A stretch of 64,000 nucleotides of DNA, taken from assembly GCA_024244645.1 (NCBI GenBank), contig JAAEOH010000065.1, positions 5,882-69,881 of the forward strand, in the 5' to 3' direction. Shown piece after piece: positions 4,695-46,171 of this stretch (its first letter is position 1; each line of letters begins with the position of its first letter). The stretch is from Hyphomicrobiales bacterium (GTDB lineage Bacteria; Pseudomonadota; Alphaproteobacteria; Rhizobiales; Rhizobiaceae). Made by a program: the position numbers and the translations under genes. The notes under the pieces were generated by a model that did no database searches, was not told where the DNA came from, and worked only from the letters and a program-made list of their open reading frames with translations.

Positions 4695-4708
4695 TTGACC
4701 TCAATCAA
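4695..4708. promoter_or_regulatory. FNR-like box, apparently orphan
   Basis: TTGAC-CTCA-ATCAA, one mismatch to TTGAT-N4-ATCAA; no obvious -10 at the expected spacing. Confidence 0.3.
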
Positions 4709-26530: not shown

Positions 26531-27470
26531 CCTTCCACCGGTCCTTGCCGGCGAGGAGGTTCTTGACCAGTTTCTCCTCGAGCAGAATGACGTTTTGAGC
26601 CCGGTTGCTTTTGGCGAAGTAGCCCCGCCGCTTCCTGTCCCTGCTACCGATGCGCAGAACCTGGGCTTCTTTCTTCCCTTTTTCCTCGACGGTTACGGTG
26701 ACGAAGGGAGCTTCCAGGCCGTAACGGGTTAATTCCGCAGGACCTTCATCGATGAATGCCTTCACCGGTGTGTCCTTGATTGCATAAAGGGTCTCCAGCA
26801 CAGAGGCTTGATCGGCCTGCACCTGCTCCGGCTGAAGCATGTCCCAACGGCCGCGCTCGTGCACGATCACCACTTTGTCCCCGGTCCGTCGTGCAATCTC
26901 AATACGGCTCAGTTTGAGCGGATCGTAGGCCAGTGTTGACTTGTCCCGAAGGGCATAGACGCTAGCATCAGCCTCCCTGCGGACATCCGAATGGATGCGG
27001 TAGACCGCCGCCTCGCCCTTGAACTTGCCATAGGTCACATTGAGGGTTGGTCCCTTGTTGCCGAATTGCAGCGTTGTGACGTCATTACCAGTTCTAAAGG
27101 TGATTTCGAGTTCCGGTTCGGCCAACCCCAGTTCCACCAGCTTTGCCGAATCTGGATTGTTGAACAAAACCGCGTCCTTGCGCGATTTGACGATGTTTTT
27201 CAGCATCTTGGCGATGCCCTCGTCGTCGCCTCTTGCCAGCAGGGGTTGGTTCAGCCACCAACCTTCCTCGTTCCTGGTGACGCGCACCCGTATTCCGTTC
27301 TTATCTGTCCTGATCCAGAATTCCGCCACGTCGTCGATCTCGAAAGGTAACAGTTTAAGGTTTGCTTCCGCGATCTGTTCGTGTTCCCCGACCCTGTCTT
27401 CGATCAGCAGAAAGGCGCCAAACAGCCCGGCCAGGGCGATAAACCAAAAAATGGTTTTCTTGAACAGCAT
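26520..27470 (-). CDS. DUF4340-like periplasmic protein
   Basis: N-terminal TM, duplicated W-x-P..YGL..P..TV repeat; follows the GldG-like gene; start ATG 27470. Confidence 0.7.
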   Translation of the reverse strand: MLFKKTIFWFIALAGLFGAFLLIEDRVGEHEQIAEANLKLLPFEIDDVAEFWIRTDKNGIRVRVTRNEEGWWLNQPLLARGDDEGIAKMLKNIVKSRKDAVLFNNPDSAKLVELGLAEPELEITFRTGNDVTTLQFGNKGPTLNVTYGKFKGEAAVYRIHSDVRREADASVYALRDKSTLAYDPLKLSRIEIARRTGDKVVIVHERGRWDMLQPEQVQADQASVLETLYAIKDTPVKAFIDEGPAELTRYGLEAPFVTVTVEEKGKKEAQVLRIGSRDRKRRGYFAKSNRAQNVILLEEKLVKNLLAGKDRWKDGG

Positions 27471-29089: not shown

Positions 29090-29862
29090 CTTTTGGATTC
29101 AAGCGACCGCAGGGTCAGGAACAGGAACAGGACGGTAAAAATGACGAAGTAGATGATGTCTTCGGTATCGACAACGCCCTTGGCCAGGCTTTCGAGATGT
29201 TCGTTGATGGCGAGGTAAGAGATTATCTGGCCGAACGCGGCCGAAACAAACATCGTCGAATAGCTCATCAGCCAGAAGAAGAAGAGGATACTGATCGAAA
29301 GCGAGCCGGCGATAATCTGGTTCTCGGTCAGTGACGAGGTGAAGATGCCCAGTGAAATGAACGCCGCCCCCAACAAAAACAACCCGGCATACCCGGTAAG
29401 AATCGGCACAACTTCCGGCTCCCCCAAATTGATGAGCAGAAGCGGATAACTGATTGTAGAAAGCAGCATCGCTACAAACACCGTATAACAAGCCAGAAAC
29501 TTGCCAATAACGACCTCCGCGTCTCTTACCGGATACGTAAGAAGCAGTTCCATCGTGCCCGACTTCTTTTCATCGGCCAGCAGCTTCATTGTCAACAGTG
29601 GCAGCATCAGCAGCATGACGATACTGATATTTCCGAATAGCGGTCGCACAACGGTTTCGTTGACGTTCAGCAGGTTGTATTGCTTGGCAACCATGGGATT
29701 GGCCTGGGCCTGGAAACTCAGGATCGAAAAGCTTGCCAGTAGGTTGAAAAAGAGATAACCCGTCGCCGCCATAAAGATGGCGATGACCGCGTAGGCGATA
29801 AAAGAGCCAAAATAGGATTTGACGTCTTTCTTGAACACCAGCCCTATGTTCCTCAGATTCAC
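29080..29862 (-). CDS. ABC-2 permease (GldF-like)
   Basis: LTMKLLADEKKSGTMELLLTYP..GKFLA; SSLTENQIIA. Confidence 0.9.
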   Translation of the reverse strand: MNLRNIGLVFKKDVKSYFGSFIAYAVIAIFMAATGYLFFNLLASFSILSFQAQANPMVAKQYNLLNVNETVVRPLFGNISIVMLLMLPLLTMKLLADEKKSGTMELLLTYPVRDAEVVIGKFLACYTVFVAMLLSTISYPLLLINLGEPEVVPILTGYAGLFLLGAAFISLGIFTSSLTENQIIAGSLSISILFFFWLMSYSTMFVSAAFGQIISYLAINEHLESLAKGVVDTEDIIYFVIFTVLFLFLTLRSLESKRWR

Positions 29863-30800
29863 GCGCTGTCCTCTTCCGTCACGAGTTGAATGAAGACATC
29901 CTCCAAACTGGTTTCCACGGCACGCATCTCATTCAGTTGCCAGTTGTTGCTCACGACGACGGGCAGGATGCTTTGTTCGCCATCCGCCCCCCTCGCCATC
30001 TCAACGACAAATTCGTTGCAGCCGTTGGCCGCCGGTGTCGACTCGACTTTTCTTACCCCCTTGATCTCGCCGAGCGCCTTGGCGATCTGATCCAGATCAC
30101 CGGTGATCCGAAGAAAGAGCCTCGACGAGTCGCGCAGGTTGGCGGTCAAGTTGTCAGGCTTGTCCACCACAACCAGCTTGCCTTTGTTGATAATGACCAC
30201 CCGTTCGCACACCATGCTCACTTCGGGCAGGATATGAGTGCTGAGCACGATAGTGCGCTGCCCCGCCAGCTCGGTGATCAATTTGCGAATCTCCTTGATC
30301 TGCCTGGGATCGAGGCCGTTGGTGGGTTCGTCGAGAATAAGGATCTCTGGGTCGTTGACCAACGCTTGCGCCAATCCCACCCGCTGCCTGTAGCCCTTGG
30401 AAAGTTCGCCGATCGGCCGGCCGACAACCGCATCGAGGCCGCAATCGCCCATCGTTCTGGTCACGGTTTGCTTGACCGCCTTACTCTCCACGCCCTTTAC
30501 GCCGGCAACAAAGGCCAGGTAATCGTCGACAACCATGTCCCTGTAAAGAGGCACGCTTTCAGGCAGATAGCCGATCCGTTTGCGGACTTCGAAGGAATTC
30601 TCAAAGCAGTCGTAGCCAGCGACAACGGCCTTTCCAGAAGTGGCAGGAAAGAAACAGGTGAGGATGCGCATGGTGGTGGTTTTTCCAGCGCCGTTGGGGC
30701 CGAGAAACCCGATGGTCTCGCCTTTTTGCGCCGAAAAGGTTATGCCGTCGATGCCAAGATGCGAACCGTAGCTCTTGGTCAGGTTTTCTACTTCGATCAT
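29859..30800 (-). CDS. ABC ATPase (GldA-like)
   Basis: GPNGAGKTT, LSKGYRQR, ILDEPT. Confidence 0.93.
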   Translation of the reverse strand: MIEVENLTKSYGSHLGIDGITFSAQKGETIGFLGPNGAGKTTTMRILTCFFPATSGKAVVAGYDCFENSFEVRKRIGYLPESVPLYRDMVVDDYLAFVAGVKGVESKAVKQTVTRTMGDCGLDAVVGRPIGELSKGYRQRVGLAQALVNDPEILILDEPTNGLDPRQIKEIRKLITELAGQRTIVLSTHILPEVSMVCERVVIINKGKLVVVDKPDNLTANLRDSSRLFLRITGDLDQIAKALGEIKGVRKVESTPAANGCNEFVVEMARGADGEQSILPVVVSNNWQLNEMRAVETSLEDVFIQLVTEEDSA

Positions 30801-31342
30801 GATCGCTTGTCACTCGTTCCGAGATCGTAGCGTCTGTAGGAGCCCGGTGCGCGCGTGTTCTTGAGCGCGTCTTCGATCGGTCTCTGTTCAACCGGCGTCG
30901 CCAGCAGATCGATCAGTGCCTGATCCCTGTTGAGAAGCTTTCGCAGATCTTCTTCCGGCCAATCGCTCTCCCAATTGCCGATCAAAGCGTTCCAGGCTTG
31001 GGTAATGGCAACGATTTCCGCATCGCTGAACTGCCGAAGATTGAGGTCCTTGTTCCGGGCGTTGGTAATTTCCGTATACTTTTTCATAAAGTGCGTCACG
31101 ACAATAAAAGGCGGACCGCAGCGTGAACAGTACTTGAGCATTTTTTCTTCGCTGTGACAGGTCGAGCATCGTTCATAGGCGAGCGCAACCGCCTCGTCCG
31201 GGGTATAGACGATATATCCCAACGCCTTGGCTTCCTTGATGAATTCCCTGCCAACGGGATTGGGAACCAAGAAAATCAAGGCAAGGACGCCCAGAAAGAC
31301 AACAGGCGATGCCGCCGTGATAATCCAGCACTTCCTCATCAC
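30797..31342 (-). CDS. Membrane-anchored cytochrome c
   Basis: N-terminal TM, CSTCH followed by CSRC. Confidence 0.75.
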   Translation of the reverse strand: MMRKCWIITAASPVVFLGVLALIFLVPNPVGREFIKEAKALGYIVYTPDEAVALAYERCSTCHSEEKMLKYCSRCGPPFIVVTHFMKKYTEITNARNKDLNLRQFSDAEIVAITQAWNALIGNWESDWPEEDLRKLLNRDQALIDLLATPVEQRPIEDALKNTRAPGSYRRYDLGTSDKRS

Positions 31343-31485
31343 CTGATACCTTCAGCTTGTACAAAGAGATGGTCAGTCGCGCTGCAGCTTCTGGTTCCCT
31401 TTTTTGCCTGTCGCACTCCAATGGCTGCTGCGAGCATGCACCCTTTCTCCTGCCGAAACTTCCGGCAGCGATCAGTTTCCCGGTT

Positions 31486-32430
31486 TCAAAATCCCTTCTT
31501 GACCTTTGCATCGACTTCTTCAGGCTGCTTGCGCAAGCCGCCTCTAACGTAACCACCGCCCTTAAGCGCGCCTTCGCCACGCCCGGCTAGCGATAATTCG
31601 GTTTCCTCCTGGGCATCGTTGAAGTCGTCACTCTGGTTCGCCGTCAATGCATCAATATCGCCGGCAATCGGTTTGAAAGTCGTTTTCGGGTTCAGATATT
31701 CCTCGACTGTCTTCGGCGGTTTGGTGTCCGCCATCATCCGAATCCAGGCGACGACGTTCCAAATGTCCTGATCCTGCAGCAAATTGCCCCAAGCCGGCAT
31801 CGACGAAGACAGGTAGACTTCTTCACCACCGCCTTTGATCACTGTGAACAGCTGCAGATTAGACTTCTTGTTCATGTAGTCACCGTCGGTCAGGATACGC
31901 GGACGCGGCTCGATCTCCGAAGCGCTCGGCCCATCACCCTGCAAGCCCCAGCCGTGGCAGGCGATGCAATAGACGTAGTACCACTGTTTACCTTCATTGG
32001 GATCCGCACCCGGGACCAAGGTGGTTTTGAACGCCGGGGACCAATTGTTGGTCCATTGGTTGTAGACCGATTCACCCTCAGCCGGTTTTTCGACACGGTC
32101 CCACAATTCGGTTTTGCCGCCCTTACCTCCGTAGCCACTATCGCCCCGCGAGGGGGTGGTACCCTCGGTCCTTTTGCCGACGCCGGTCAAATAGTCGAAA
32201 GGAGCGACGCCATAGGTACTACCGGACACGCCCGAACTCATCAGCTCGGCTTCATCATCATAGGCCGCCGCGGCCGCTTCCAGTTCTGCTTCGGTGCGAA
32301 CCGGGCACACCACTTTGGTGCCGTCATAAAGCCTGCACCTTTCGGTCTCCGCGAACGATCCCGAATATGTCGACGCCGCAATTGCGGCACCCAACGCCAC
32401 CGCCCATTTGATCCTATTTTTTTGCTGCAT
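31486..32430 (-). CDS. Periplasmic monoheme cytochrome c with a long N-terminal extension
   Basis: CIACH, MPAWG; first 29 aa identical to the NosZ-like protein. Confidence 0.88.
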   Translation of the reverse strand: MQQKNRIKWAVALGAAIAASTYSGSFAETERCRLYDGTKVVCPVRTEAELEAAAAAYDDEAELMSSGVSGSTYGVAPFDYLTGVGKRTEGTTPSRGDSGYGGKGGKTELWDRVEKPAEGESVYNQWTNNWSPAFKTTLVPGADPNEGKQWYYVYCIACHGWGLQGDGPSASEIEPRPRILTDGDYMNKKSNLQLFTVIKGGGEEVYLSSSMPAWGNLLQDQDIWNVVAWIRMMADTKPPKTVEEYLNPKTTFKPIAGDIDALTANQSDDFNDAQEETELSLAGRGEGALKGGGYVRGGLRKQPEEVDAKVKKGF

Positions 32431-32672
32431 TCTTTAGTTCTCCCTGTATATCACGATCAGCTTCCAGAATTGGTCAGCTGGCTCGCCGTTTGGCTAATCA
32501 AGGGCAGCGGGATTTGGTGCATGGACGCACTTCCCACTATAGCTAGAACGATTGTCAGCATAATTCTGTTTTCAGCCGAGCAACTTGACTTAAATCAATC
32601 CACGCCTCACGCGTGCTCTCGCGCGACGCTATGTCGCATGGACCACGGTCATCCGCGATACCAACGAGCAGC
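32345..32672 (-). repeat. Direct repeat copy 1 (promoter + RBS + signal-peptide codons)
   Basis: 328 bp, 3 mismatches seen versus 38827-39154. Confidence 0.95.
32585..32598. promoter_or_regulatory. FNR-type box
   Basis: TTGAC-TTAA-ATCAA; TATGCT -10 on the minus strand (32562-32557) at class II spacing. Confidence 0.7.
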
Positions 32673-32764
32673 GCTATAAAGAGTAGGCACGGCAAGACAA
32701 CTTCACGATTTACGTTAGCTTATCGCAGGCCCATTGGACTTCGCGGGTGATCAGGACGCGAGAC

Positions 32765-33781
32765 CTATTTCAGCCACAGCTCCAGAATATCTTCGCCATG
32801 CAGTTTGTTGAGTGTGTTCTGCGAAATATCAGTGAACCAGATGTCGCCATTACAACCTACCGCGATGTCGTTTGGCTCTGTTTTTCCCAGCGCAACCTTT
32901 ACCTCCAGGAGTCTCCTGGAAACCGGGTTCATGGCTCCAAGCTTGCCTACATGGCCTAGCGTAAACAGGACATTTCCAAGCTGATCGATGTCCAATCCCT
33001 CGACGACACCCCGGACGGGGAGAACAAAGCCCTCAAATTGCCGCTTCGAAGGGTTGAACATCATCAATTTGGCGTTTCTGCGGCCGCCAAACCAGATCAG
33101 CCCGTTGCGATCGATAACAATATCCTTGGGCACCAGGAACGGTTCCGGGAAGTCAAACTCCTCGAATTTTCCGCTGAACGAATCGAACGAAGCCAATTTA
33201 TTCCCTTGGGATTCGATGAACCATATGATGCCCTTAGGGCTGACCGCGAGACCTGTCGGTTGGCTGTTGGACGTGGGGATTGGATATTCCAAGAAGCTCT
33301 CGGTCAGGGGATCAAATCTTCCGAGATTGTTGCCGAAGAACTCAGTGAACCAGATAACACCGTTATTATCGCTGCCGATCCGGCGTGGAACGCTGTCGAT
33401 GGTCGGGACTTCATACTCCTTGAAAGATTTGTCGGCCGGATCGAAGCGGCCTAATTGATTGGCGTCCTGCTCGAGGAACCAAACCACACCGGCGCTGTCT
33501 ATGGTGAGGTCGGAGGGGAAGCTCCTGTGAGTCGGGATGCCGTGTTCAGTGAAGGCCTTTTTGTCTGGGTCGAATTTAGTCAGTTGGTTTGCGTTGGCTT
33601 CCAGGACCCAGATAATGCAGTTTGGGCCGATGGTGATCCTGGACGGCAACGCGTTGGGCGTCGGCACCTCATAGGTTTCGACGTTCCAGCCAAGCTCGCT
33701 GGCAGCCCCAAACGTGAAAGCAAGCAGGCTGGCGAGGGCCGCGTGAGCGATAGCTTTGCTCCTCATTGCCCGGTCCGCCAC
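32765..33781 (-). CDS. Exported Vgb (virginiamycin B lyase)-fold beta-propeller
   Basis: Signal peptide; repeated P..I....G.IWF.E...N.LGRFDP....F.EY.IP blades. Confidence 0.85.
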   Translation of the reverse strand: MADRAMRSKAIAHAALASLLAFTFGAASELGWNVETYEVPTPNALPSRITIGPNCIIWVLEANANQLTKFDPDKKAFTEHGIPTHRSFPSDLTIDSAGVVWFLEQDANQLGRFDPADKSFKEYEVPTIDSVPRRIGSDNNGVIWFTEFFGNNLGRFDPLTESFLEYPIPTSNSQPTGLAVSPKGIIWFIESQGNKLASFDSFSGKFEEFDFPEPFLVPKDIVIDRNGLIWFGGRRNAKLMMFNPSKRQFEGFVLPVRGVVEGLDIDQLGNVLFTLGHVGKLGAMNPVSRRLLEVKVALGKTEPNDIAVGCNGDIWFTDISQNTLNKLHGEDILELWLK

Positions 33782-35052
33782 CGCCGGAATATGAACAGTA
33801 CCGCAAAGAGTGATGCGCCGGAGACGATCAGTAGGGCCGCAACGGCGTAGCCTGTGAGAGAAGTCGAATATTCCTCCGGAATAGAGTCTGAAGCGGCGGT
33901 CGTTTTTACATCGACTGTGGCTGCGGCCATGGCTGCTCGTGCCTTGGTCATGGAAAGCACCCCCAACCTTTTTGCCTCGGTGCCGGTTTCAGAAAACCAA
34001 AGGCGATCACGTTTATCGTCGATTGCCATGTCTCCAGGCAGACTGGCATAGGTCGGGATGTCGAATTCCTTGAACTGCGCCGAAGCGGGATCGAAGATGC
34101 CGACTTTGTTGCCCATATACTCCAGAAACCAGATTTCGCCGCTACCACTGGCCGCGATGGCATTAGGAAGGCCTCCGGCGGTCGGAATCAATGCCTCATA
34201 AAACCTTTCCCCTTTGGGATAAAACACGCTGAGACGGTTGGTTCGCAGCTCGACAAACCAGACCCTGCCCGCTCCATCCACGGTCAGCGTTTCCGGATTA
34301 GCAAAGCGTGTTGGAATTTCATATTCGCTGAATGCGGTGCTGGCAGGAACAAACTTGCCGATCTTATTGGCGTTGGCCTCGGCAAACCAGATGGCATCGC
34401 TGCCGTCGATAGCAATCCCCTTGGGATAGCTGTGCAGCGTGGGAATCGGGTATCCTTGCAAACCGGACCCACCTGGCTCGAAGCTGTAGATCTTGTTTTC
34501 TTTAGGAGACAGAAACCAAACCAGCCCCTTTCGGTCGACTACCAGGTCATCCGGCGAAACATTTCCCTGGTTCGCACCGATCTCGCGAACCGCGTCCATA
34601 TCTGCAAGGAGATATCTCTTAAATGAGCCGGTGGCCGGGTCGAACTGACCGAGGAATCCGGTACCATCATCGGAATTGGCCCATCGACGAACACTGAACC
34701 AGACGCTTCCGCCGGGCGCAAGGGTGATGCGTGATGGCCCAACGTTGCCCCAGTCGGAAGGCAGGGGGTGAGCCTCGAACGTCTTTCTCTCGGGGTCGAA
34801 CATGACGATATTCTTCCCGACTTTCTCGGCAAACCAGACGTTTCCGCTGGGGCCCACCGCTATGGAGTGCGGGGAACTGATTGCGTCTGGGACCACGAAT
34901 TCCTGGATCACCGGATCTGTCGTCTGGGCGTCAGCCTGGCCCCCTAACGGCCCTGCGAGCAGTAAAATGCAGAAAAGCAAACCTGCCGCCCAGGGCCCCG
35001 GATCGGTCCGTGCCGCAAAAAAATGCCTCCGAAGGATGCGACAGATTCGCAT
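33763..35052 (-). CDS. Exported Vgb-fold beta-propeller with a C-terminal TM anchor
   Basis: Same blade repeats; signal peptide from ATG 35052; C-terminal hydrophobic helix followed by RRWR. Confidence 0.85.
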   Translation of the reverse strand: MRICRILRRHFFAARTDPGPWAAGLLFCILLLAGPLGGQADAQTTDPVIQEFVVPDAISSPHSIAVGPSGNVWFAEKVGKNIVMFDPERKTFEAHPLPSDWGNVGPSRITLAPGGSVWFSVRRWANSDDGTGFLGQFDPATGSFKRYLLADMDAVREIGANQGNVSPDDLVVDRKGLVWFLSPKENKIYSFEPGGSGLQGYPIPTLHSYPKGIAIDGSDAIWFAEANANKIGKFVPASTAFSEYEIPTRFANPETLTVDGAGRVWFVELRTNRLSVFYPKGERFYEALIPTAGGLPNAIAASGSGEIWFLEYMGNKVGIFDPASAQFKEFDIPTYASLPGDMAIDDKRDRLWFSETGTEAKRLGVLSMTKARAAMAAATVDVKTTAASDSIPEEYSTSLTGYAVAALLIVSGASLFAVLFIFRRWRTGQ

Positions 35053-35057
35053 GGGAT

Positions 35058-35735
35058 CTACCACGTCATCGTCGGTTCGTAGTAATGCCTCAATTGCCAG
35101 TTCGCGTCCTTGTACGATTGCGCTCCATCCGTCGCGCCGGCCCGGTAACCGCCGACGTTGATCTGTAACTGCCGGGATCCCAGATAGTATTCGGCCATAT
35201 CGGCAGGCGGCAACGCCTGCCTTACTCCCATCATCGGGTTGTGGCATGAAGCGCAACCGGTGGTCTTGGCTGGATAGCCAGTGCCGATCACGCTGGCCGT
35301 CATGCTCACCCAAATTGCCAGGGCGCCGATACCCATCAGCAACTTCACTCCAGTCGACAATCTTTTGCCGGCGGTCTTCTTGCGGCCGAAGACAAACGGC
35401 ATAGCGAGCCCCGCCAGAAGAATGCCGACAGGGGCCCAGAAAGTTCCCAGCTGCCGCCATATGGAGGCCTCGCCGGTCAGGTACCAGAACGGCTGGAAGA
35501 CGAAGATAAGGTACCACTCAGGGGCTGGAACATACTCCCCTTCGGTGGGAAGCGGCGGCATGTTGACGTCCGTCGGTACGCGATAAAAATAAGCCAAACC
35601 GATAACCAGGGCGATGGTGATGGTGCTGACGGCTACGGTCTTTAGCGCGTGGCGCGGCCAGAATCGGTGGAATTCCTGCGGATACGGTGGATCGTATTTT
35701 GGATCACGAATGAGGTCCGGTTGCTCGTCGGTCAT
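35058..35735 (-). CDS. Cytochrome b subunit IV (PetD/QcrC-like) fused to a c-heme
   Basis: FWPRH, PAPEWY, CASCH. Confidence 0.85.
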   Translation of the reverse strand: MTDEQPDLIRDPKYDPPYPQEFHRFWPRHALKTVAVSTITIALVIGLAYFYRVPTDVNMPPLPTEGEYVPAPEWYLIFVFQPFWYLTGEASIWRQLGTFWAPVGILLAGLAMPFVFGRKKTAGKRLSTGVKLLMGIGALAIWVSMTASVIGTGYPAKTTGCASCHNPMMGVRQALPPADMAEYYLGSRQLQINVGGYRAGATDGAQSYKDANWQLRHYYEPTMTW

Positions 35736-35756
35736 GCCTTGCTCTCCACACCGTTC

Positions 35757-36389
35757 CTATAATGGTTCGGATATGCCGTGCTTTTTCACCATCTTGAAAT
35801 GGAAACTGAGGAGCACGAATAGTATCAGCGGCAAAATCACGATATGCGTTATGAAGCTCCGGTAGATGGTAAAGGTGTTGAGCACGAAACGTTCCATGTA
35901 CTCGCCGATAAGTGGCCAGGTAGCGACATAGTCGACCCAGATTGCATAGGACCAATAGGCACGCCAGTCCCAGGGCAGGACAATGCCGCTGAGTACAAAC
36001 AGGAAAACCACCAGGAACTGGAGCACGCCGGAAATCCAGTTGAGTTCCCGGGGATTGTGGTACGCCTTGCGATAAAACACAGTGACCAGGTGGGTGAAAA
36101 CCGCGGCCAGTAACAGTGTCGCGCCCCACCTGTGCATGTTCCTGGCCAGCCAGCCGAGTGGGACCTCGTTGCTCATTAGATCGATACTGTTGAGGGCCTC
36201 TTTGGGATCCGGCGTATAGAAGAACAGCATGAAGACGCCAGTGATCACCTGAAGTATGATGATCAGCAGGGAAATGCCACCAAAACAGTAGAAGAAAGAA
36301 TGCGCCGGCACCGCTTGTGCCTTCTTTGCGTCAGTCCATTGCCTGATGCCGGTTCTTGCGTCCAACCAGTCATAGATTTTCGCTATCAT
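35757..36389 (-). CDS. Cytochrome b6-like (PetB/QcrB) subunit
   Basis: FYCFGG (heme ci Cys), NMHRW, THL, THIVILP, SFHF. Confidence 0.9.
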   Translation of the reverse strand: MIAKIYDWLDARTGIRQWTDAKKAQAVPAHSFFYCFGGISLLIIILQVITGVFMLFFYTPDPKEALNSIDLMSNEVPLGWLARNMHRWGATLLLAAVFTHLVTVFYRKAYHNPRELNWISGVLQFLVVFLFVLSGIVLPWDWRAYWSYAIWVDYVATWPLIGEYMERFVLNTFTIYRSFITHIVILPLILFVLLSFHFKMVKKHGISEPL

Positions 36390-36991
36390 TGGCTTTTGGC
36401 TTTACTGTTGCTCCCACCGGAAGCAGTATCCAAGATTTCCAGCTGGTTGGTTTTCGCGATGCTTTCGCGATCCTGATCGTCCGTGTCGCCCCTGAAATCG
36501 AGTTTCCAGGTATTTCTTTCCTGGTCCAGGTTCAGGTGAACCGGGGTGCGCACGGCGTAAATGCCGCCGAAACTGGATGGCATTTTATATTCAATCGTGA
36601 CGATCGCATGTTTGTCCTGGACCCTACTCTCGATGATCTCTGCCTTGAAACCGGGGGGATACCTGTTGACGATCCCGAGGAATAGGGCCTGGTCGGTTCG
36701 CGATTGGTCGCCGCTCGTTAGCTTGTAGGCTTCGTTGATCAACAGGTTACCGCCCCTGATCTTCGCCTCGGAGACATATTCGTAGAATCTCTCAACCACC
36801 GAGACAGCAGTTTCTTCGGGTAGTGGTGTTTCCTGATACCCAAAATTGATAGCAGCGAAGCCGGCACCGGCCAGCAGCAAAGCCGTGAACAAACCAAAAA
36901 AAAGAGCCTTCATGCGCAAATCTTGCAACATCTCTCGTCCGGATTTCCGCACAGTCCAAAATTCCTTGTCCTGCGGCGGTACTGCGCCCAA
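36386..36991 (-). CDS. Membrane-anchored periplasmic hypothetical protein
   Basis: Single TM helix (start may be ATG 36913); no Cys; ATGA-coupled to cytochrome b6. Confidence 0.7.
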   Translation of the reverse strand: MGAVPPQDKEFWTVRKSGREMLQDLRMKALFFGLFTALLLAGAGFAAINFGYQETPLPEETAVSVVERFYEYVSEAKIRGGNLLINEAYKLTSGDQSRTDQALFLGIVNRYPPGFKAEIIESRVQDKHAIVTIEYKMPSSFGGIYAVRTPVHLNLDQERNTWKLDFRGDTDDQDRESIAKTNQLEILDTASGGSNSKAKSQ

Positions 36992-37160: not shown

Positions 37161-38912
37161 CTAGAGTCCCTTTGCTCGCGGTGCGATCTCAAGCTCGTCG
37201 GGAGAGACAAGACCAGGCAGAGTTTGCGCCTTGTCATACTCGCCCACGGATAGATTCGAGGCCTCGCCCTGAGGATCGTCGACGAAGAACGACCCACGCA
37301 TTTCCAGGTGCAAAGGACCGCAGAAATGCTGGCAAAATATTGCGTACTCGCCTGCGATGTCCGCTACGAACTCGGCTACTGCCGTCACCCCGCGCGGTGC
37401 GTCCAGGTTAGTCCGCAGACCATAGGGCCCGTAAATCACGAAACCCATGGTGACATCCGGATTCTTGGTAATGCCCGCTGCTCGGTCGATGTTGGTAACG
37501 AAGATGCGTACCTTGTCGCCCTTGTTGACGCGGATTTGTCGTGGGATATAGCCGTAACTAAAGGCTTTGACATGGATTTCCTTGACCCCGTCCTTCGTCC
37601 GGATACCTGGCTTCTCGTTGGATTTAGGCAGCAGATAGACCTTGGCCTTGGCTCTATGGGCGGGACGAATGTCGATGGCGGCTTCAGTAATCAGGCCGCC
37701 TTTCTCAGCCTGGCCCATGTTCCAGCGTTTTATCTGTGAGGCGTAGATCGACTTGGCGTTGTGAGGCTCGCCGTCCACCGGGACGATCTTCAGCGTCTTA
37801 CCGTAGGTCGGGCTCTCTTCCCGGGCATCCCACAGTTCGAAGTTAACCGGATAGACCAGGCCGGTCGGATTGAACAGTCCAGTCGAAAATTTGTTCAGCG
37901 AGATAACATAGTCGTTGTTGGCGCTGATCGCGATGTGGCCGGTCCGGTAATGGGTCGGAATCTCATCCACCACCTCGAGTTTCTTCAGATCGATCTTCAC
38001 GTTGGAATCCGAGACGAAGCAACTTTCGTACGCGTATTTGGAAGTCAGGCCTTCCGGGCTATCCTTGCCTGGTTCGTAAGTACCGCCGTCTTTGTCGTAG
38101 ACATCCATCACCGAGTGCAATGGACCGGCGCAGGTTGGGATAACCTTTTTTACCGCCAGTTTTTCGACGTCGATCACGGTCATTGTTGCCGACAGTTTGT
38201 CGCTGACCAGAACCAAGGTGCTCTCGGGAATGACATCGGTGCCGTGTGGGTTCTTGCCGACCGGAATTTCCTTGATGAACTTGAACGGGTTGGTCGAGAA
38301 CACGCCTACCGTGGAGTGGTAATAATTACCTGAAAAGACGTAGCGGCCTTTTTTGTCGACATCAAGGTAATCAGGGGCGCTGGGCGCGGGACCCCAATCG
38401 ATAATTTCGGTCTTGCCGGTGGCAATCTCGGTTTTCGACATCTTGCCGGAATATTCCCCGGTGCCGTAGAGGAACTTACCGGTATCGTCCAGCGCAATGT
38501 GGTGAACACCAAACGGAAACGGCAGTGAAATCAGACGTTCGAGGAAACCGGTCTGCAGGTTGATAACGCCGATTGTATTGGCACCCTTGTCGTTGACGTA
38601 CAGATATTTGCCGTCCGGAGTGAGATTCTTATTGCCGGCGTTGGTGCCGCTGAATACCGGCTCGTGCAGATCGACGCCAACGTCGATGTGACGGTACGTC
38701 CGCAGGCTGGGAAGCCCGATGATTGCAACCCTGCCATCAAGGCCGCCGGCGTTGTACAGTAACATCGGGTCCTTTGTCGGATGATCTGTTGCTTCTACTT
38801 CAACGTTCTGCCAATCAGGTAAATCCGTCTCCGCGAACGATCCCGAATATGTCGACGCCGCAATTGCGGCACCCAACGCCACCGCCCATTTGATCCTATT
38901 TTTTTGCTGCAT
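37161..38912 (-). CDS. nosZ: Divergent nitrous-oxide reductase-like multicopper protein (beta-propeller + cupredoxin), Sec signal
   Basis: AGGLDGRVAIIGLPSLR, DGKYLYVNDK, KNPHG, GPLH, HYRTGH, LNKFS, EPH, CQHFCGPLHLEM; ligand substitutions described in findings, so activity is not established. Confidence 0.85.
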   Translation of the reverse strand: MQQKNRIKWAVALGAAIAASTYSGSFAETDLPDWQNVEVEATDHPTKDPMLLYNAGGLDGRVAIIGLPSLRTYRHIDVGVDLHEPVFSGTNAGNKNLTPDGKYLYVNDKGANTIGVINLQTGFLERLISLPFPFGVHHIALDDTGKFLYGTGEYSGKMSKTEIATGKTEIIDWGPAPSAPDYLDVDKKGRYVFSGNYYHSTVGVFSTNPFKFIKEIPVGKNPHGTDVIPESTLVLVSDKLSATMTVIDVEKLAVKKVIPTCAGPLHSVMDVYDKDGGTYEPGKDSPEGLTSKYAYESCFVSDSNVKIDLKKLEVVDEIPTHYRTGHIAISANNDYVISLNKFSTGLFNPTGLVYPVNFELWDAREESPTYGKTLKIVPVDGEPHNAKSIYASQIKRWNMGQAEKGGLITEAAIDIRPAHRAKAKVYLLPKSNEKPGIRTKDGVKEIHVKAFSYGYIPRQIRVNKGDKVRIFVTNIDRAAGITKNPDVTMGFVIYGPYGLRTNLDAPRGVTAVAEFVADIAGEYAIFCQHFCGPLHLEMRGSFFVDDPQGEASNLSVGEYDKAQTLPGLVSPDELEIAPRAKGL

Positions 38913-39154
38913 TCTTTAGTTCTCCCTGTATATCACGATCAGCTTCCAGAATTGGTCAGCCGGCTCGCCGTTTGGCTAATCAAGGGCAGCGGGATTTGGT
39001 GCATGGACGCACTTCCCACTATAGCTAGAACGATTGTCAGCATAATTCTGTTTTCAGCCGAGCAACTTGACCTAAATCAATCCACGCCTCACGCGTGCTC
39101 TCGCGCGACGCTATGTCGCATGGACCACGGTCATCCGCGATACCAACGGGCAGC
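38827..39154 (-). repeat. Direct repeat copy 2 (promoter + RBS + signal-peptide codons)
   Basis: Matches 32345-32672; ends 24 bp from the IS6 end. Confidence 0.95.
39067..39080. promoter_or_regulatory. FNR-type box upstream of the nosZ-like gene
   Basis: TTGAC-CTAA-ATCAA, same geometry as copy 1. Confidence 0.7.
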
Positions 39155-40548: not shown

Positions 40549-41421
40549 TCAGGCCGTTTTTTTGGCGCGTTCCGAAATTTCATCCAGCCCATCGGACAGC
40601 GTCGGACGCTCGCTGCTAAAATAGACCCCTATCTGGCGATGATCTGTGACCTGGGCGGCAATCATCGCTGCTGAAAGATCCGATGCATCGTGATCGTCCG
40701 GCAGCGGATGTACACTCATGTCCAGATTCTTATAGGTCATCGATGTCTTGTCGAACGTGACGCATGGCGAAAGCACATGCAGATATGAAAACCCTCGGTG
40801 ATCGATGGCGGCCTTGATCATTTCGGTCAGATGATGCGGTTCACCTGCATAGGCCTGGGCAACCCAGCTTGCGCCGTACGACAGCAGCATCATCAGCGGA
40901 TTCAACGGCTGATCGAAATTGAGATACGGTGTCGTCGTCGTCTTGAAGCCGAGAATCGAAGTCGGTGAAGTTTGCCCCTTGGTCAGGCCGTAAACGCCAT
41001 TGTCGAAAAGGATATAGGTGATATCGACGTTGCGCCGGGCGGCGTGCGGTATATGCCCGCCACCAATGGCAAAAGCATCGCCGTCGCCGCCGACAACCAC
41101 GACTGTCAGGTCTTCGTTGGCTACCTTGATTCCGGTTGCCACCGGCAGCGCTCGCCCGTGCAGCGAGTGAAAGCCATAGGTATTCATGAAAAACGGGAAG
41201 CGCGAGGCGCATCCGATTCCCGATACGCACACCGTATCCTTCTGATCGAGACCAAGCTCCGTCATGGCCTTGCCGACACCTTCGGAAATCGAGAAGTAAC
41301 CGCATCCCGGACACCATGTCGGCAGTGTGCCGGAGCGGTATTCCAGCTTTCCGCTTCTCTCCACTTCCTCCAGTTTGTCTTCCAGGTAGACAGGTGCGCT
41401 AATGTTCATCATGGCTTGCAT
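40549..41421 (-). CDS. korB: 2-oxoacid:ferredoxin oxidoreductase beta subunit
   Basis: WCPGCG, SGIGC, GGDGD TPP motif, NGVYGLTKGQ, SPCVTF. Confidence 0.9.
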   Translation of the reverse strand: MQAMMNISAPVYLEDKLEEVERSGKLEYRSGTLPTWCPGCGYFSISEGVGKAMTELGLDQKDTVCVSGIGCASRFPFFMNTYGFHSLHGRALPVATGIKVANEDLTVVVVGGDGDAFAIGGGHIPHAARRNVDITYILFDNGVYGLTKGQTSPTSILGFKTTTTPYLNFDQPLNPLMMLLSYGASWVAQAYAGEPHHLTEMIKAAIDHRGFSYLHVLSPCVTFDKTSMTYKNLDMSVHPLPDDHDASDLSAAMIAAQVTDHRQIGVYFSSERPTLSDGLDEISERAKKTA

Positions 41422-41433
41422 CCCGTTTGACCG

Positions 41434-43242
41434 CTATTCGGCGGCAATTTTTCCACTGTGACCGACGAGCTGGCGGATTTGGTCGAGAATCTCGCCCACG
41501 CTCATCGGTGTTCCTCTCACCCGGTTCAGCCTGTGGACCGGGCGGCCTGTCGCTCCGGTCACCAGCGAGGCGAACTGGGCTTCATAATTGAGTTCGGGTA
41601 CAAGCACTTCGTTGCAGTCGTCCAGGAAGGCTTTTACGGGCCCGACCGGCAGCGGCGACAGCATGACGACTTTCATGGCCGAGCAACGAATACCCTCCTT
41701 GCGGGCCTCGATCATAGCTTCCAGAATCTCGCCAAACGTTGATCCCCAGCCAAGAACACCGACATCGACCACCCCCTTGTCTCCGAAGCGCTTCGAGATG
41801 GTGACGCCGGGGTGCTTGAGTGCCGGCAGCAGCTTTTGATGGCGCTTGACGCTCATGGCCTCGTGTATGCGCGGTTGATCGCTCGGCCGTCCACGCTCAT
41901 CATGCTCCAGCCCTGTAACGGTGTGCATGCGCCCCGTCTCGCCCGGGATCGCGCGTGGGCTGACACCGTCGCTGGTGAGCTTGTAGCGGTTGTATTCGGC
42001 CGGGCTCGCATTTTTTCGCGGCGTCTTCGAGCAATTTTCCGCGAACGGATTTTTCGACGGCAGTTGCACGGCTTCGTAGCGGTTGGAGAGATAAAGATCG
42101 AGTAGAACGATAACGGGCGTCTGGAAAGCCTCCGCCATCTCGAACGCCTTACCAGCGCATTTGTAGCAGCCTTCCACATTGGTGGGTGCCAGGACGATGC
42201 GTTGGCCGTCACCCGCAACACCGAATACGGCCAGATTGAGATCCGACTGCTCGGTTTTTGTCGGCATGCCGGTGCTCGGTCCCCCACGCTGGGAAACAAA
42301 TGCCACCGCAGGCACCTCGGCCATAGCGCCGAGCCCCATCATTTCCGTCATCAGAGCAAGACCGGGACCGGAGGTGGCCGTGGCTGCCCTCGCGCCTGTA
42401 TAGCCGGCGCCAATGGTTGCCGCGATGGCCGAAATCTCATCTTCGGTCTGCAACAGGCGGCCGCTGTGTTTTGGCATTTCGCGCGCCAGCATTTCCATGA
42501 TCGTGGTGGCCGGCGTGATGGGATAGCCGAAGAATGCGTCAATGCCCGCATCCAGGCACCCCCGGACCACGGCGGCGTTGCCACTCATCATAACAAGATC
42601 GGTCTGTTTGCCTTTACCGCCGGAGGCACCGATGCGGTCGAAATGCAGACGAAAGGTGTCCACGCCGGTCTGAAAACCCGCATCGAACGCAGCGCCAACC
42701 GAATCTGCCAATTCTTTGGATTTGCCCGCGAATTTGCCGCTGATCACCTCATGGAAGACCTCGGCCGGCATGTCATACAGGCCGGCAAGATAGCCGACCG
42801 CAACGATGTTGCGCGATCGTGCGCTGCTGGTGATACGTTCGGAAATTTCGCGAAACGCCACGCCATAGGGCAGATGTGCCGGTGAGAGATGCGATGAAAC
42901 ATGCGCACCTTCGCCTACCGTGGAAACCGGCGTGTCCTCATAGATCACTGTGCCGAACTTGCAGACCTCCGAGACATGCGGAATGGCATGGCTGTCATTG
43001 AGCGAGATCAGGCAATCGGATTCCGATTTCAGCGAATAGACCTGTTCGGATGTAATCCGCGCCCGCGCGATACATTTGCCGAAACCGCGAATTTCCGGCG
43101 GGTATACGTCAAACGCGATCACATTATAGCCGGCTTTGGCCATGGCCTGTTTGAGAATGTCGCCTGCCGCGATGGTACCGTCGCCCGCCGAACCGCAAAT
43201 GGCTATCTGGATATCAGTTCTTTGTTTGGCCGTTCTTGCCAT
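41434..43242 (-). CDS. korA: 2-oxoacid:ferredoxin oxidoreductase alpha subunit (gamma-fused)
   Basis: GSAGDG, GYPITPAT, EDEISA, TSGPGLALM, QRGGPSTGMPTKTEQSD; start ATG 43242. Confidence 0.92.
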   Translation of the reverse strand: MARTAKQRTDIQIAICGSAGDGTIAAGDILKQAMAKAGYNVIAFDVYPPEIRGFGKCIARARITSEQVYSLKSESDCLISLNDSHAIPHVSEVCKFGTVIYEDTPVSTVGEGAHVSSHLSPAHLPYGVAFREISERITSSARSRNIVAVGYLAGLYDMPAEVFHEVISGKFAGKSKELADSVGAAFDAGFQTGVDTFRLHFDRIGASGGKGKQTDLVMMSGNAAVVRGCLDAGIDAFFGYPITPATTIMEMLAREMPKHSGRLLQTEDEISAIAATIGAGYTGARAATATSGPGLALMTEMMGLGAMAEVPAVAFVSQRGGPSTGMPTKTEQSDLNLAVFGVAGDGQRIVLAPTNVEGCYKCAGKAFEMAEAFQTPVIVLLDLYLSNRYEAVQLPSKNPFAENCSKTPRKNASPAEYNRYKLTSDGVSPRAIPGETGRMHTVTGLEHDERGRPSDQPRIHEAMSVKRHQKLLPALKHPGVTISKRFGDKGVVDVGVLGWGSTFGEILEAMIEARKEGIRCSAMKVVMLSPLPVGPVKAFLDDCNEVLVPELNYEAQFASLVTGATGRPVHRLNRVRGTPMSVGEILDQIRQLVGHSGKIAAE

Positions 43243-43267
43243 TTCGCGTGCCTTCAGATTTGTCTTT

Positions 43268-44308
43268 CTAGCCGTATTGCCAAAATGGGGAATCGATCTC
43301 GCCACTCTTGGTCGTGACCAGCTTCTCATTTTGAACTGTGTCGATCGATTCATCCGCTCCCGTCATATTGAACGCAGCGATCCTGCCCATCTTTTTGACG
43401 TTCTTCCAGCCGTAGTAGAACCGGTACTGGTTTTCCTCGGGTGACCAGATCTGGCAAACGTCGCCCGCTGCCCAGATATTCTTGTCCGTCGATCGCAATT
43501 GCGGGTTGACCAGAACGCCGCGTTCGATGTCGACGCCTGCACCGGCCATGAACGCCAGTGACGGCATCAGGCCGCAAAACGACAGGATAACATCGGCGTC
43601 GATGACCTCGTTATTGTCGAGGATGATGCGCCGGTCAGGCCTGTTGCGGTCGCCGCGTTGGATCGACGTAATGGCAACATCGGTCCTCACACATATGCCC
43701 ATATCCTGCAATACAGCGACGAATTTTTGCCGTTGCTCAGCTTCAACGCGATGCGGCCAGAACAAATGATCCTCACCGATCACCGTTACCTTGTAGCCGT
43801 TTCTGACCAGCGAGCGGGCCAGATCAAGGCCGATCATGTCACCGCCGAGCATGACCATGTGACCGCGCCTCGGCAGAGCGTCACACACGGATTTGGCTTC
43901 CTCATAAGTTCCGAATTTGGCAATCAGATTTTTGAATTGATTGAGGCTTTCAGGGATATATCTGCCCCCTCCGCTGGCAATCAGAAGCTTGCTATATGAC
44001 AATGGTTCACGGTGGTGCAGCATCAGTAGTTTGTTGGTCGGGTCGACATGACTGACCCATGTATTGCGACGGACGGAGATTTTCTGTTCGTCGTAATACT
44101 CAGGCGGGTGAAGCAGGAAGTCGCGCCAGTCTGCCGACGAGCTGAAGATTTTGGGCAGTTCGTAGCGGTTGATCGACAGCAGCTTGCCGGCGCTCACCAT
44201 TGTGATGCGGCTGTCACTGTCACGCTGGCGAAGATGTCGGGCCGCCTCGCTGCCGGCGACGCCGTTTCCGATTACCACGTAATGTTCAGTATTTGCCATT
44301 GTCATCAC
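43268..44308 (-). CDS. FAD-dependent pyridine nucleotide-disulfide oxidoreductase-like protein
   Basis: VIGNGVAG, IASGG, WAAGDV; degenerate second Rossmann motif GGDMIGLD. Confidence 0.85.
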   Translation of the reverse strand: MMTMANTEHYVVIGNGVAGSEAARHLRQRDSDSRITMVSAGKLLSINRYELPKIFSSSADWRDFLLHPPEYYDEQKISVRRNTWVSHVDPTNKLLMLHHREPLSYSKLLIASGGGRYIPESLNQFKNLIAKFGTYEEAKSVCDALPRRGHMVMLGGDMIGLDLARSLVRNGYKVTVIGEDHLFWPHRVEAEQRQKFVAVLQDMGICVRTDVAITSIQRGDRNRPDRRIILDNNEVIDADVILSFCGLMPSLAFMAGAGVDIERGVLVNPQLRSTDKNIWAAGDVCQIWSPEENQYRFYYGWKNVKKMGRIAAFNMTGADESIDTVQNEKLVTTKSGEIDSPFWQYG

Positions 44309-44326
44309 GCCGGTTGCCCGTTCCCG

Positions 44327-46171
44327 TCAGATATCCTGGTAGAACATTTCGTTCTTGGTGATCGAAATGCATTTGGTCGGGCAAACCATGTAACAGGCTC
44401 CGCATCGTATACACTGATTGTTGTCGATCCATATGGCCCCGACGTGATCCCATTCGCTGGATTCTTGCAGATCGCCGTATGTACCGTCTCCCTTAATCTC
44501 AACGCCCTCGACCAATTTGATGCAGTCACGCGGGGCCACTTCAATGCAGGCACGGCAGTAGATGCAGTTATCCACATCGATGCTGTAGCGGTGGTAACAC
44601 AGGTAGCATCGTTTGGCTTCCTCGTAAGCCGTGTCGAGCTCCATTCCCTGCTCCACCTCTTCGGTAAGGCCCGTGAAGCGATTTCTGACATCCTCAGTGG
44701 GCATTTCCTGCCGCGGAATGAAATCGAAAGCCCGTTCGCGCAGGGGCTCTTCCACGGGTTCGATTTTAACCACGAGTTTGCGCCGCTCGCGACCCATCAG
44801 CCAGGTGTCTATGTCAATGGCGATGCGCCGGCCGTGACCCACCGCCTCGATCACGGTCGTCGGGCCGTACACGAAATCGCCGGCAGCAAATACGCCTTCT
44901 TTCGACGTCATACCGTTGTCGCCGATCGCCACGCTGCCCCAGCGGTCCAGCTCCAGTTCCAAATCCACATAGTCATTGACCGTTCGCTGGCCGATCGCGA
45001 CCAGAAGTGTGTCGCACTCTTCTTCAAATTCCGAACCGTCGATGGCAATGGCGGCGCGGCGGCCGTTGTCCCGCCAGCCGCCAAGCCGGTTCTGCACGAA
45101 CCTGACCCCCTTGAATTTGCCATCCTCATCGGTCAACAACGCCGATGGTGTGCGCAGGCCCCGGATCACTACGCCCTCACGTTTGGCCTCAAAGATCTCG
45201 TCCTTTCCGACCGGGATGTACTCCTCGGTGGTGCGCAGATGAATTGTAACTTCCTCGGCCCCGAGCCGCTTGGCCACGCGGGCACAATCGAGAGCGGTAA
45301 ATCCAGCGCCGACGACGAAGACCCGCTTGCCGACTTTCTTGGTTTCACCGCGGTGCAGTTCGACAAGAAAATCCAGCCCGTATTCGACATTGTCCAGAAG
45401 ACGAACCGGATCCTTCTCGCTGTTATCGAGATCCTGCAGCGGCAATGGTGTCGCCTCCATCGAGCCCGTTGCCAGGAGGACAGCGTCATATTCCTTGTGC
45501 AGGTCTGACAGCCGCACCTGTCCCTCGCCGATGCCGACCTCGGTCCCGATGCGCTGTTCGACCCCCAGGCGCATTGCGTTCTGCAGCTCCACGTCAAGAA
45601 TTTCCCGCGGCAGCCGAAACTCCGGAATTCCGTAGTTGAGCATGCCGCCCGGACGTTCCTCGCGATCGAAGATGGTGACGTTGTGGCCGAGGGTGGAAAG
45701 GTCGTGTGCAGCCGCCACGCCGGCCGGACCTGCTCCGACGACGGCGATACGCTTGCCGGTTGGCGTAAACAGGCTTTCATTGATGCGATGACCGGAGGAT
45801 TTGAAATCGCCTGCGAGCCGTTTGAGGTGGCAAATCGCAACGGGCTCCCCGTTGCCGGGCCAACCGTGCCGGCACTTGGCCTCGCACGGGCGCGAACAAA
45901 TCCGTCCCAAAGTACCCGGCAAAACATTCGCCATCCGGTTCAACTCATACGAACGGCCGAAGCGCTGTTCGGTGATCATGCGGATATAAGCCGGAATGTT
46001 GGTGAGCGCCGGGCAGGCAGACTGGCAGGGGACGTTTTCCTCGACCCAGCCTATGTCACGCGGGTCAGTTGAATAACGAACCGGCGTTACGACCCTTTTT
46101 CCGTACGATTGAGGGTCGGAGAAATCCTCGTCCTCCCTCAGATAGATCTTGCGACTTTCCTGCGGGTTCAT
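44327..46171 (-). CDS. GltD/NfnB/DsrL-like iron-sulfur flavoprotein
   Basis: CQSACP..GRICSRPCEAKC, VGAGPAG, GMLNYGIPEFRL, EAKRCYLC, C-terminal ferredoxin CIRCGACYMVCP. Confidence 0.9.
   Translation of the reverse strand: MNPQESRKIYLREDEDFSDPQSYGKRVVTPVRYSTDPRDIGWVEENVPCQSACPALTNIPAYIRMITEQRFGRSYELNRMANVLPGTLGRICSRPCEAKCRHGWPGNGEPVAICHLKRLAGDFKSSGHRINESLFTPTGKRIAVVGAGPAGVAAAHDLSTLGHNVTIFDREERPGGMLNYGIPEFRLPREILDVELQNAMRLGVEQRIGTEVGIGEGQVRLSDLHKEYDAVLLATGSMEATPLPLQDLDNSEKDPVRLLDNVEYGLDFLVELHRGETKKVGKRVFVVGAGFTALDCARVAKRLGAEEVTIHLRTTEEYIPVGKDEIFEAKREGVVIRGLRTPSALLTDEDGKFKGVRFVQNRLGGWRDNGRRAAIAIDGSEFEEECDTLLVAIGQRTVNDYVDLELELDRWGSVAIGDNGMTSKEGVFAAGDFVYGPTTVIEAVGHGRRIAIDIDTWLMGRERRKLVVKIEPVEEPLRERAFDFIPRQEMPTEDVRNRFTGLTEEVEQGMELDTAYEEAKRCYLCYHRYSIDVDNCIYCRACIEVAPRDCIKLVEGVEIKGDGTYGDLQESSEWDHVGAIWIDNNQCIRCGACYMVCPTKCISITKNEMFYQDI

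Follow-up and report, generated by a model that had tools for sequence, protein, structure and literature searches.

In the NosZ nitrous-oxide reductases of Pseudomonas stutzeri and Marinobacter nauticus, a histidine (H583 and H579, respectively) ligates the copper CuA1 together with two cysteines and a methionine, and flips between an IN and an OUT conformation (PMC11573801). In the OUT conformation this histidine hydrogen-bonds S550, and CuA1 then keeps a Cys2Met coordination (PMC11573801). The canonical CuA motif is given as Hx34Cx3Cx3Hx2M (PMC6189053). A further family, the lactonase-type NosZ (L-NosZ) of clade III, is attributed by citing papers to He et al. (Nature 2025;646:152) (PMC13685413), and its gene clusters have been described as lacking nosDFYL and nosR and as containing b-type cytochromes and ABC transporter components (PMC13685413). 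Here we describe an L-nosZ gene (minus strand, 37161-38912) in a 64,000-nucleotide stretch of contig JAAEOH010000065.1 from a Hyphomicrobiales bacterium (assembly GCA_024244645.1), a stretch hereafter called the window. The 583-residue product of this open reading frame (ORF) has a methionine, M489, at the position of H583, as do all aligned members of one sub-clade of the family, referred to below as Met-type, whereas the His-type L-NosZ keep the histidine.

A methionine at the position of the first CuA histidine

An earlier reading of this DNA, made without database searches (the sequence-only reading), had pointed to a DVTMGF motif containing M489 and to the residues C527, C531, H535 and M538; on translation, its residue numbers and codons proved exact. 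M489 is encoded by ATG (minus strand, 37446-37448), in a stretch that reads TKNPDVTMGFVIYG, also TNIDRAAGITKNPDVTMGFVIYG, and corresponds to the first CuA histidine, which in P. stutzeri NosZ is H583, the proposed 'gating' ligand. A histidine codon, CAY, differs from ATG at all three codon positions. The CuA loop, C527-Q-H529-F-C531-G-P-L-H535-L-E-M538 (CQHFCGPLHLEM; minus strand, 37299-37334), has the form Cx3Cx3Hx2M, with the codons at 37334-37332 (C527), 37328-37326 (H529), 37322-37320 (C531), 37310-37308 (H535) and 37301-37299 (M538); in the translation, the loop region reads FCQHFCGPLHLEMRG. When the site was compared with a canonical CuA, the two cysteines, the second histidine and the axial methionine of the loop were present, whereas the N-terminal histidine was absent and methionine stood in its column. 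The site motif of this protein is Mx37Cx3Cx3Hx2M.

A HMMER comparison with solved NosZ chains placed NPDVTMGF opposite DDLTHGF of Paracoccus denitrificans NosZ (1FWX), pairing M489 with the histidine of DLTHGF, and placed M489 opposite position 583 of P. stutzeri NosZ, EDVS(H583)GF, for which the best matches in the PDB include the H583F and H583W variants. In a BLASTP alignment with a His-type L-NosZ, TNIDRAAGITKNPDVTMGF lay on TNTDKKTAMTNDPAPMHGF without gaps, over a 19-residue stretch from TN.D to GF, and in a MAFFT alignment of 247 sequences M489 and the canonical histidine shared one column. The spacing between this methionine or histidine and the first cysteine is constant within each group, at 37 residues in Met-type L-NosZ, 36 in His-type L-NosZ and 34 in canonical NosZ, the last in agreement with the published Hx34Cx3Cx3Hx2M motif (PMC6189053). 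C527, C531, H535 and M538 were invariant in the alignment (247/247), and the cupredoxin domain (residues 441-544) matched the CuA domain of oxidase subunit II with an E-value of ~3e-5 (HMMER).

Conservation and origin of the methionine

The sequence-only reading had proposed that the Met-for-His change at the CuA position is natural, and had suggested an alignment of homologues to see whether the methionine is conserved. That alignment bore the proposal out. D[VI]TMG occurred in every one of the 120 homologues that share 67% identity or more, and the methionine was kept in 75/75 complete loci from species-representative genomes, at identities down to 53%. In the 247-sequence alignment, the CuA column held M in 224/224 members of the Met-type clade and H in the 23/23 others; the close homologues had no histidine there, and no other histidine was aligned at the ligand position. 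Neither chance nor a single sequencing error, which the same reading had thought unlikely, can account for a codon that differs from CAY at 3/3 positions and for methionine in 224/224 sequences. Judging by record titles, the Met-type loci come from Rhodospirillaceae, Gammaproteobacteria, Magnetococcales, Zetaproteobacteria, Gallionellales, Nitrospirota, Nitrospinota and deltaproteobacterial lineages.

More distant lactonase-type relatives were added by an exhaustive profile search over 1.84 billion representatives. Histidine was found in all of these (P0123, P0127, P0129, P0131 and P0143), in the canonical NosZ representatives, and throughout the His-type L-NosZ branch with its 14 clusters at 90% identity. 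A maximum-likelihood tree was rooted on canonical NosZ (six representatives); it set L-NosZ, Met-type and His-type together, apart from the six canonical sequences with a Shimodaira-Hasegawa-like approximate likelihood ratio test (SH-aLRT) value of 100, and gathered the Met-type sequences in one branch (SH-aLRT 100) with a stem length of 1.0. One change suffices on this tree, which implies that histidine is ancestral and that methionine is derived and fixed. The replacement is an ancient, clade-defining trait and is not private to this gene. In the collections searched, the retrievable L-NosZ clusters numbered 224 Met-type versus 14 His-type.

Acid adaptation, in which a methionine would be favoured because it cannot be protonated, was considered as a driver of the change and set aside, because the Met-type sequences, by their record titles, come mainly from metagenome-assembled genomes (MAGs) of marine oxygen-deficient zones, groundwater and sediment. 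The literature on acid tolerance concerns other enzymes.

Two close relatives from the search of representatives lack CuA. In P0122 (450 aa), both cysteines and the histidine are replaced (NPRFSGPLATEM). P0121 (1139 aa) is L-NosZ-like at 596 bits and has a long C-terminal extension, without a Cx3Cx3Hx2M loop.

Family assignment, fold and export

The reading frame is intact over the 583 codons of the translation. The product matched the NCBIfam model NF052460 (L-NosZ) with 803.6 bits over model positions 1-480, that is, the whole model, for which the curated equivalog cut-off is 700 bits, whereas the clade I and clade II models stayed far below their cut-offs of 625 bits (121.5 bits for TIGR04244 and 171.5 bits for TIGR04246). 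Pfam models recognized lactonase/YNCE propeller repeats, a NosZ propeller repeat and a cupredoxin domain. A motif filter attributed to the discovery study, in the form in which it is quoted in the MiDAS preprint, consists of a length of 400-900 aa, CX2FCX3HXEM, one of DXHH and GXHH, together with PHG, GPLH and EPH. Every element was found in the protein, which has 583 aa, CQHFCGPLHLEM at residue 527, GVHH at 135, PHG at 222, GPLH at 263 and EPH at 382.

An AlphaFold2 (AF2) model of the protein, built from a 71-sequence alignment, had a predicted local distance difference test score (pLDDT) of 89.3 and a predicted template modelling score (pTM) of 0.88; it was used in place of a model from a shallow alignment of 14 sequences, which was unusable, with a pLDDT of only 52.8. 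The best 50 fold matches in the PDB (Foldseek) were all NosZ, with a probability of 1.00, E-values of ~1e-30 and ~20% identity, and the template modelling (TM) score was only ~0.5 because the orientation of the domains differs. Residues 1-27 (MQQKNRIKWAVALGAAIAASTYSGSFA; minus strand, 38832-38912) read in the translation as a Sec-type signal peptide, in which no twin-arginine motif was seen, and in the AF2 model residues 2-18 form an N-terminal helix, after which comes a linker modelled with low confidence. The ORF product is a Sec-exported clade III lactonase-type N2O reductase by family, and the simplest reading of its residues is that it would be a working NosZ-type enzyme that reduces N2O.

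The CuZ site and other conserved residues

Seven histidines of the CuZ type, H83, H137, H138, H223, H266, H326 and H384, lie in the motifs DLHE, GVHH, NPHG, GPLH, TGH and EPH, in a span at 37761-38666 on the minus strand. Each is kept in at least 221/224 Met-type and in 14/14 His-type L-NosZ, and HMMER aligned them to H129, H178, H326, H382, H433 and H494 of P. stutzeri. The canonical CuZ histidine pair (H129/H130 in P. stutzeri) is H83-E84 here (H83 codon, 38664-38666), and an extra histidine, H138, follows the H178 equivalent (H137-H138, 38499-38504); this GXHH arrangement is common to both L-NosZ branches.

Within the cupredoxin domain, H535 is the sole invariant histidine. H447 is R or Q in 34 Met-type sequences. 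The sequence-only reading had offered H529 as an alternative CuA ligand, and this suggestion had to be abandoned: among the 224 Met-type sequences, H529 is replaced by T in 14 cases and by Q in 4 (18/224), and it aligns with W620 of P. stutzeri, a residue that binds CuA2 through its backbone carbonyl and not through its side chain. Family membership, the NosZ fold, the intact CuZ histidine set and Cx3Cx3Hx2M loop, the position, polarity and conservation of M489, and the lack of any other conserved cupredoxin histidine are near certain.

Outside the cupredoxin domain, three residues show an invariance that is restricted to the Met-type clade, namely H75 (222/224; codon 38690-38688), H199 (223/224; 38318-38316) and C298 (at least 222/224; 38021-38019). 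The corresponding residues of His-type L-NosZ are L, R/K and L, which indicates that H75, H199 and C298 appeared on the branch that also carries the change from His to Met. The C-terminal tail (residues 546-583 and the stop codon; minus strand, 37161-37277) is likewise specific to the Met-type: 40-51 aa follow M538 in these proteins, with the pattern SNL..G.Y..AQ..PGL..., versus ~8 aa in the His-type. In the AF2 model the tail has a pLDDT of ~96.

Candidate copper site and alternative explanations

We propose, with moderate confidence, that the protein is a Sec-exported Met-type clade III L-NosZ with a binuclear CuA-type centre in which M489 is a ligand of CuA1. The first CuA histidine was replaced once by methionine, on the stem of the sub-clade, and the methionine has not varied afterwards. 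A binuclear CuA-type electron-entry centre would still be assembled, with M489 giving its thioether to CuA1, so that CuA1 would be all-sulfur (the two bridging cysteine thiolates, M489 and M538), and CuA2 would retain H535 and the carbonyl of residue 529. Judged from the residues present, the likeliest case is a working CuA-type centre whose ligands are Cys2-His-Met2. Since thioethers favour Cu(I), this oxidation state would be stabilized and the midpoint potential would be expected to be higher. H583 of P. stutzeri has been proposed as a gate for proton-coupled electron transfer; with M489 in its place the protonatable IN/OUT histidine would be lost, and the site would have no pH-sensitive switch. 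It may also be matched to the clade's own electron delivery, through a Rieske-less split cytochrome b/c and a soluble cytochrome c. The best 50 PDB matches include the P. stutzeri variants H583A, D, E, N, F, Y and W; H583M is absent from them, which suggests that the natural substitution is structurally unexplored.

Several points weigh against this proposal. The case for ligation by M489 is made from its position and its invariance only, and the AF2 model is at its least confident in the two CuA loops, where the pLDDT is 62-64. The sole named and curated L-NosZ that was checked, from Sporomusa acidovorans, is His-type. P. stutzeri variants with other residues at position 583 are reportedly impaired, which would mean that a simple swap is perhaps not tolerated without compensating changes. 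Moreover, the proposal leaves the Met-type-specific invariance of H75, H199 and C298 unexplained.

The main rival, which we hold to be unlikely but which deserves to be taken seriously, is that M489 is not a ligand. CuA1 would then be three-coordinate (C527, C531 and M538), as it is when the histidine is OUT, and M489 would act as a hydrophobic plug in a permanently 'ungated' site. CuA azurin is said to tolerate the loss of the equivalent histidine, and the invariance of M489 would also fit a packing role. In low-dose structures of the M. nauticus enzyme and in structures of that of P. stutzeri, the OUT-state CuA1 is trigonal-planar Cys2Met and the site is intact (PMC11573801). However, packing rarely demands identity in 224/224 sequences that span 53-100% identity, while positions 488 and 491 vary, and under such a role Leu, Ile or Phe would be expected at least now and then. 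Methionine is also a good ligand of Cu(I)/Cu(1.5), and here it occupies the precise position of the ligand.

CuA1 might instead be completed, across the dimer interface, by a histidine that lies outside the cupredoxin domain, with H75 and H199 of the propeller, possibly that of a partner subunit, as the candidates; a Cys2His2Met set would then be preserved. We consider this improbable: the ligand position is already filled by the side chain of M489, and we know of no CuA site that takes a ligand from another domain. The idea draws on the invariance of H75 and H199 in the Met-type only, on the same branch as the His-to-Met change, and on the geometry of NosZ dimers, in which CuA lies opposite the partner subunit's propeller (PMC13685413).

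It is equally improbable, in our judgement, that the Met-type proteins are not N2O reductases at all and either act on another substrate or are non-catalytic or degenerating copper proteins. The Nitrospinota members, at ~600 bits, fall under the NF052460 cut-off, the accessory genes are unlike those of the His-type cluster, and the relative P0122 has no CuA cysteines. Nevertheless, the CuZ histidines and the Cx3Cx3Hx2M loop are conserved across five or more phyla, which indicates that purifying selection acts strongly on the two copper sites; the protein keeps the NosZ fold, the gene has respiratory cytochrome neighbours and an FNR box, and surveys count Nitrospinota, Nitrospirota and Pseudomonadota as carriers of clade III nosZ (PMC13477213). 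The sequence-only reading had suggested a different electron donor or a different reaction. Of these, the donor is plausible, given accessory and electron-transfer genes that differ from the His-type cluster, and a different reaction is not favoured, given the conservation of the seven CuZ histidines. Finally, an error of sequencing or assembly, or an inactivating mutation confined to this genome, which has nothing beyond its a priori possibility to recommend it, is refuted by the identical methionine in 224 independent sequences from many assemblies, by a codon that departs from CAY throughout, and by the intact ORF, and its probability is negligible.

Gene neighbourhood, regulation and genome context

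L-nosZ heads a co-oriented cluster on the minus strand. Directly downstream of it lies a gene for a conserved membrane-anchored protein of ~175-201 aa (36386-36991), with no match to Pfam or NCBIfam models; in 37 of 82 loci, those of Nitrospinota, Nitrospiria and Desulfuromonadales among them, a homologue comes immediately after L-nosZ. It is followed by a split cytochrome b module (35058-36389; PF00033, 2.7e-36), which consists of a b6-like protein (35757-36389) and a subunit IV-like protein (35058-35735) with a CxxCH haem c motif, CASCH in the translation. The anchored-protein gene and the cytochrome b module follow Met-type L-nosZ in other phyla too. The rest of the cluster (26520-35052), as annotated with Pfam and NCBIfam, encodes two Vgb-lyase-like beta-propellers, a cytochrome c, a 181-aa ORF, an ABC ATPase, an ABC-2 permease, a GldG-like auxiliary protein and a DUF4340 protein, the ABC-2 system being GldA/F/G-like. 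No Rieske gene was found by Pfam or NCBIfam in the L-nosZ cluster of the window. The absence of nosDFYL and nosR, together with the presence of the cytochrome b modules, the cytochrome c and the ABC ATPase and permease, fits the cluster criterion for clade III.

A motif scan found an FNR/DNR-type box, TTGACCTAAATCAA, ~155 nt upstream of the L-nosZ start codon (39067-39080, no strand assigned), and this box suggests that L-nosZ is probably expressed under low oxygen. Boxes of the form TTGAYN4ATCAA occur eight times in the window, versus 0.21 expected by chance, at 4695, 14098 (both strands), 19566 (both strands), 32585, 39067 and 59124. The window also contains a 300-nt direct repeat of 99% identity (32342-32641 and 38824-39123), with the copies 6482 nt apart; each copy takes in the region upstream of a gene together with its first codons, one at the cytochrome c gene (31486-32430) and the other at L-nosZ. 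The two genes thus share promoter, ribosome-binding site and signal-peptide sequence, and two of the FNR/DNR-type boxes lie within the repeated upstream regions. Just upstream of L-nosZ there is an operon for a 2-oxoacid:ferredoxin oxidoreductase (minus strand, 40549-46171), with alpha/gamma and beta subunits identified by Pfam.

The protein is the only NosZ homologue in the genome, which is 99% complete; no clade I or clade II nosZ and no nirK were found in it, nor was a convincing nirS. The possible role of the host would be that of a non-denitrifying N2O consumer. L-NosZ was found in 0 of 40 related genomes, 16 of them from the same genus, and its absence from these relatives suggests that the gene was probably acquired horizontally.

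Implications and comparison with known systems

To our knowledge, two histidines are present in all native CuA sites that use the canonical scaffold. If M489 is indeed a ligand of CuA1, as we propose, the natural Cys2-His-Met2 site would be a new reference for the tuning of potential and valence delocalization by ligands, and would put the histidine-gating model, which was derived from H583 of P. stutzeri NosZ, to a natural test. We put forward more tentatively, as a claim that could readily turn out to be wrong, that most environmental 'clade III nosZ' diversity, in alpha-, gamma- and zetaproteobacteria, Magnetococcales, Gallionellales, Nitrospirota, Nitrospinota and deltaproteobacterial lineages, carries an uncharacterized native purple-copper centre in which one copper is sulfur-only (Cys2Met2). 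A widespread environmental N2O-consuming enzyme may thus use an unstudied copper site. With 224 Met-type versus 14 His-type clusters, and a His-type protein as the sole curated enzyme checked, environmental counts of 'clade III nosZ' mostly record a form whose electron-entry site is unlike that of the tested enzyme. The family itself is already known. In the literature searched, on clade III with CuA, motif or histidine, we found no description of a methionine variant of the CuA ligand, and within that scope the Met-for-His split appears to be new; the discovery paper of He et al., which lies outside that scope, may show it. The discovery-study motif filter, as quoted in the MiDAS preprint, includes no upstream CuA ligand, which is compatible with the His/Met split having gone unremarked.

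The closest characterized relatives are the His-type L-NosZ. The protein of S. acidovorans (WP_093792193.1, UniRef100_P0DXY8, curated as 'Nitrous-oxide reductase') has ~44% identity to the product described here and belongs to the same NF052460 family, on which it scores 914.5 bits, above the 803.6 bits of our protein and the ~600 bits of the Nitrospinota Met-types. This order implies that the His-type stands at the centre of the curated model and, by extension, of the validated enzymes. The two types have in common a seven-bladed lactonase-like propeller joined to a cupredoxin domain, the GXHH/PHG/GPLH/EPH histidines, the CxxFCGPLHLEM loop and Sec export, and in the clusters of both, b-type cytochromes and an ABC transporter replace nosDFYL and nosR. 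They differ at the ligand, where the His-type proteins, including that of S. acidovorans, read NDPAPVHGF and ours reads KNPDVTMGF. A His-type cluster on a 'Desulfovibrio sp.' MAG contig (L088, 1278-11343), which agrees with what has been published on clade III clusters (PMC13685413), has genes for a Rieske protein, a cytochrome b and a cytochrome b_C/c upstream, a second cytochrome b pair downstream, MacB/FtsX and a BNR-like propeller. The cluster in the window, in contrast, has no Rieske gene, contains two Vgb-like propellers, and has a GldA/F/G-like ABC-2 system instead of MacB/FtsX, which suggests that the electron donors and maturation factors of the two branches are probably not the same.

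The clade I enzyme of P. stutzeri (PDB 3SBP; H583 variants 7AQ2-7AQ9) has the same two-domain fold (Foldseek, E ~1e-29) at ~20% identity, and is exported by the Tat route rather than by Sec. Its H583, D576 and S550, the partner of the OUT histidine, correspond to M489, D476 and A450, and its CuZ histidine pair to H83-E84, the 'missing' histidine being supplied beside H137. The CuA of oxidase subunit II (Thermus thermophilus ba3, 2CUA) has the same Cx3Cx3Hx2M loop and the same upstream ligand position, but in the oxidases that ligand is always histidine (PMC6189053), whereas our protein has methionine. A precedent for a natural CuA-type centre without the canonical motif or the N-terminal histidine is PmoD (Fisher et al., Nat Commun 2018; PMC6189053). 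The PmoD site, however, lies between two monomers and is built from an unrelated cluster of Cys, Met and His without Cx3Cx3Hx2M (PMC6189053), whereas the L-NosZ described here keeps the canonical scaffold with one ligand swapped.

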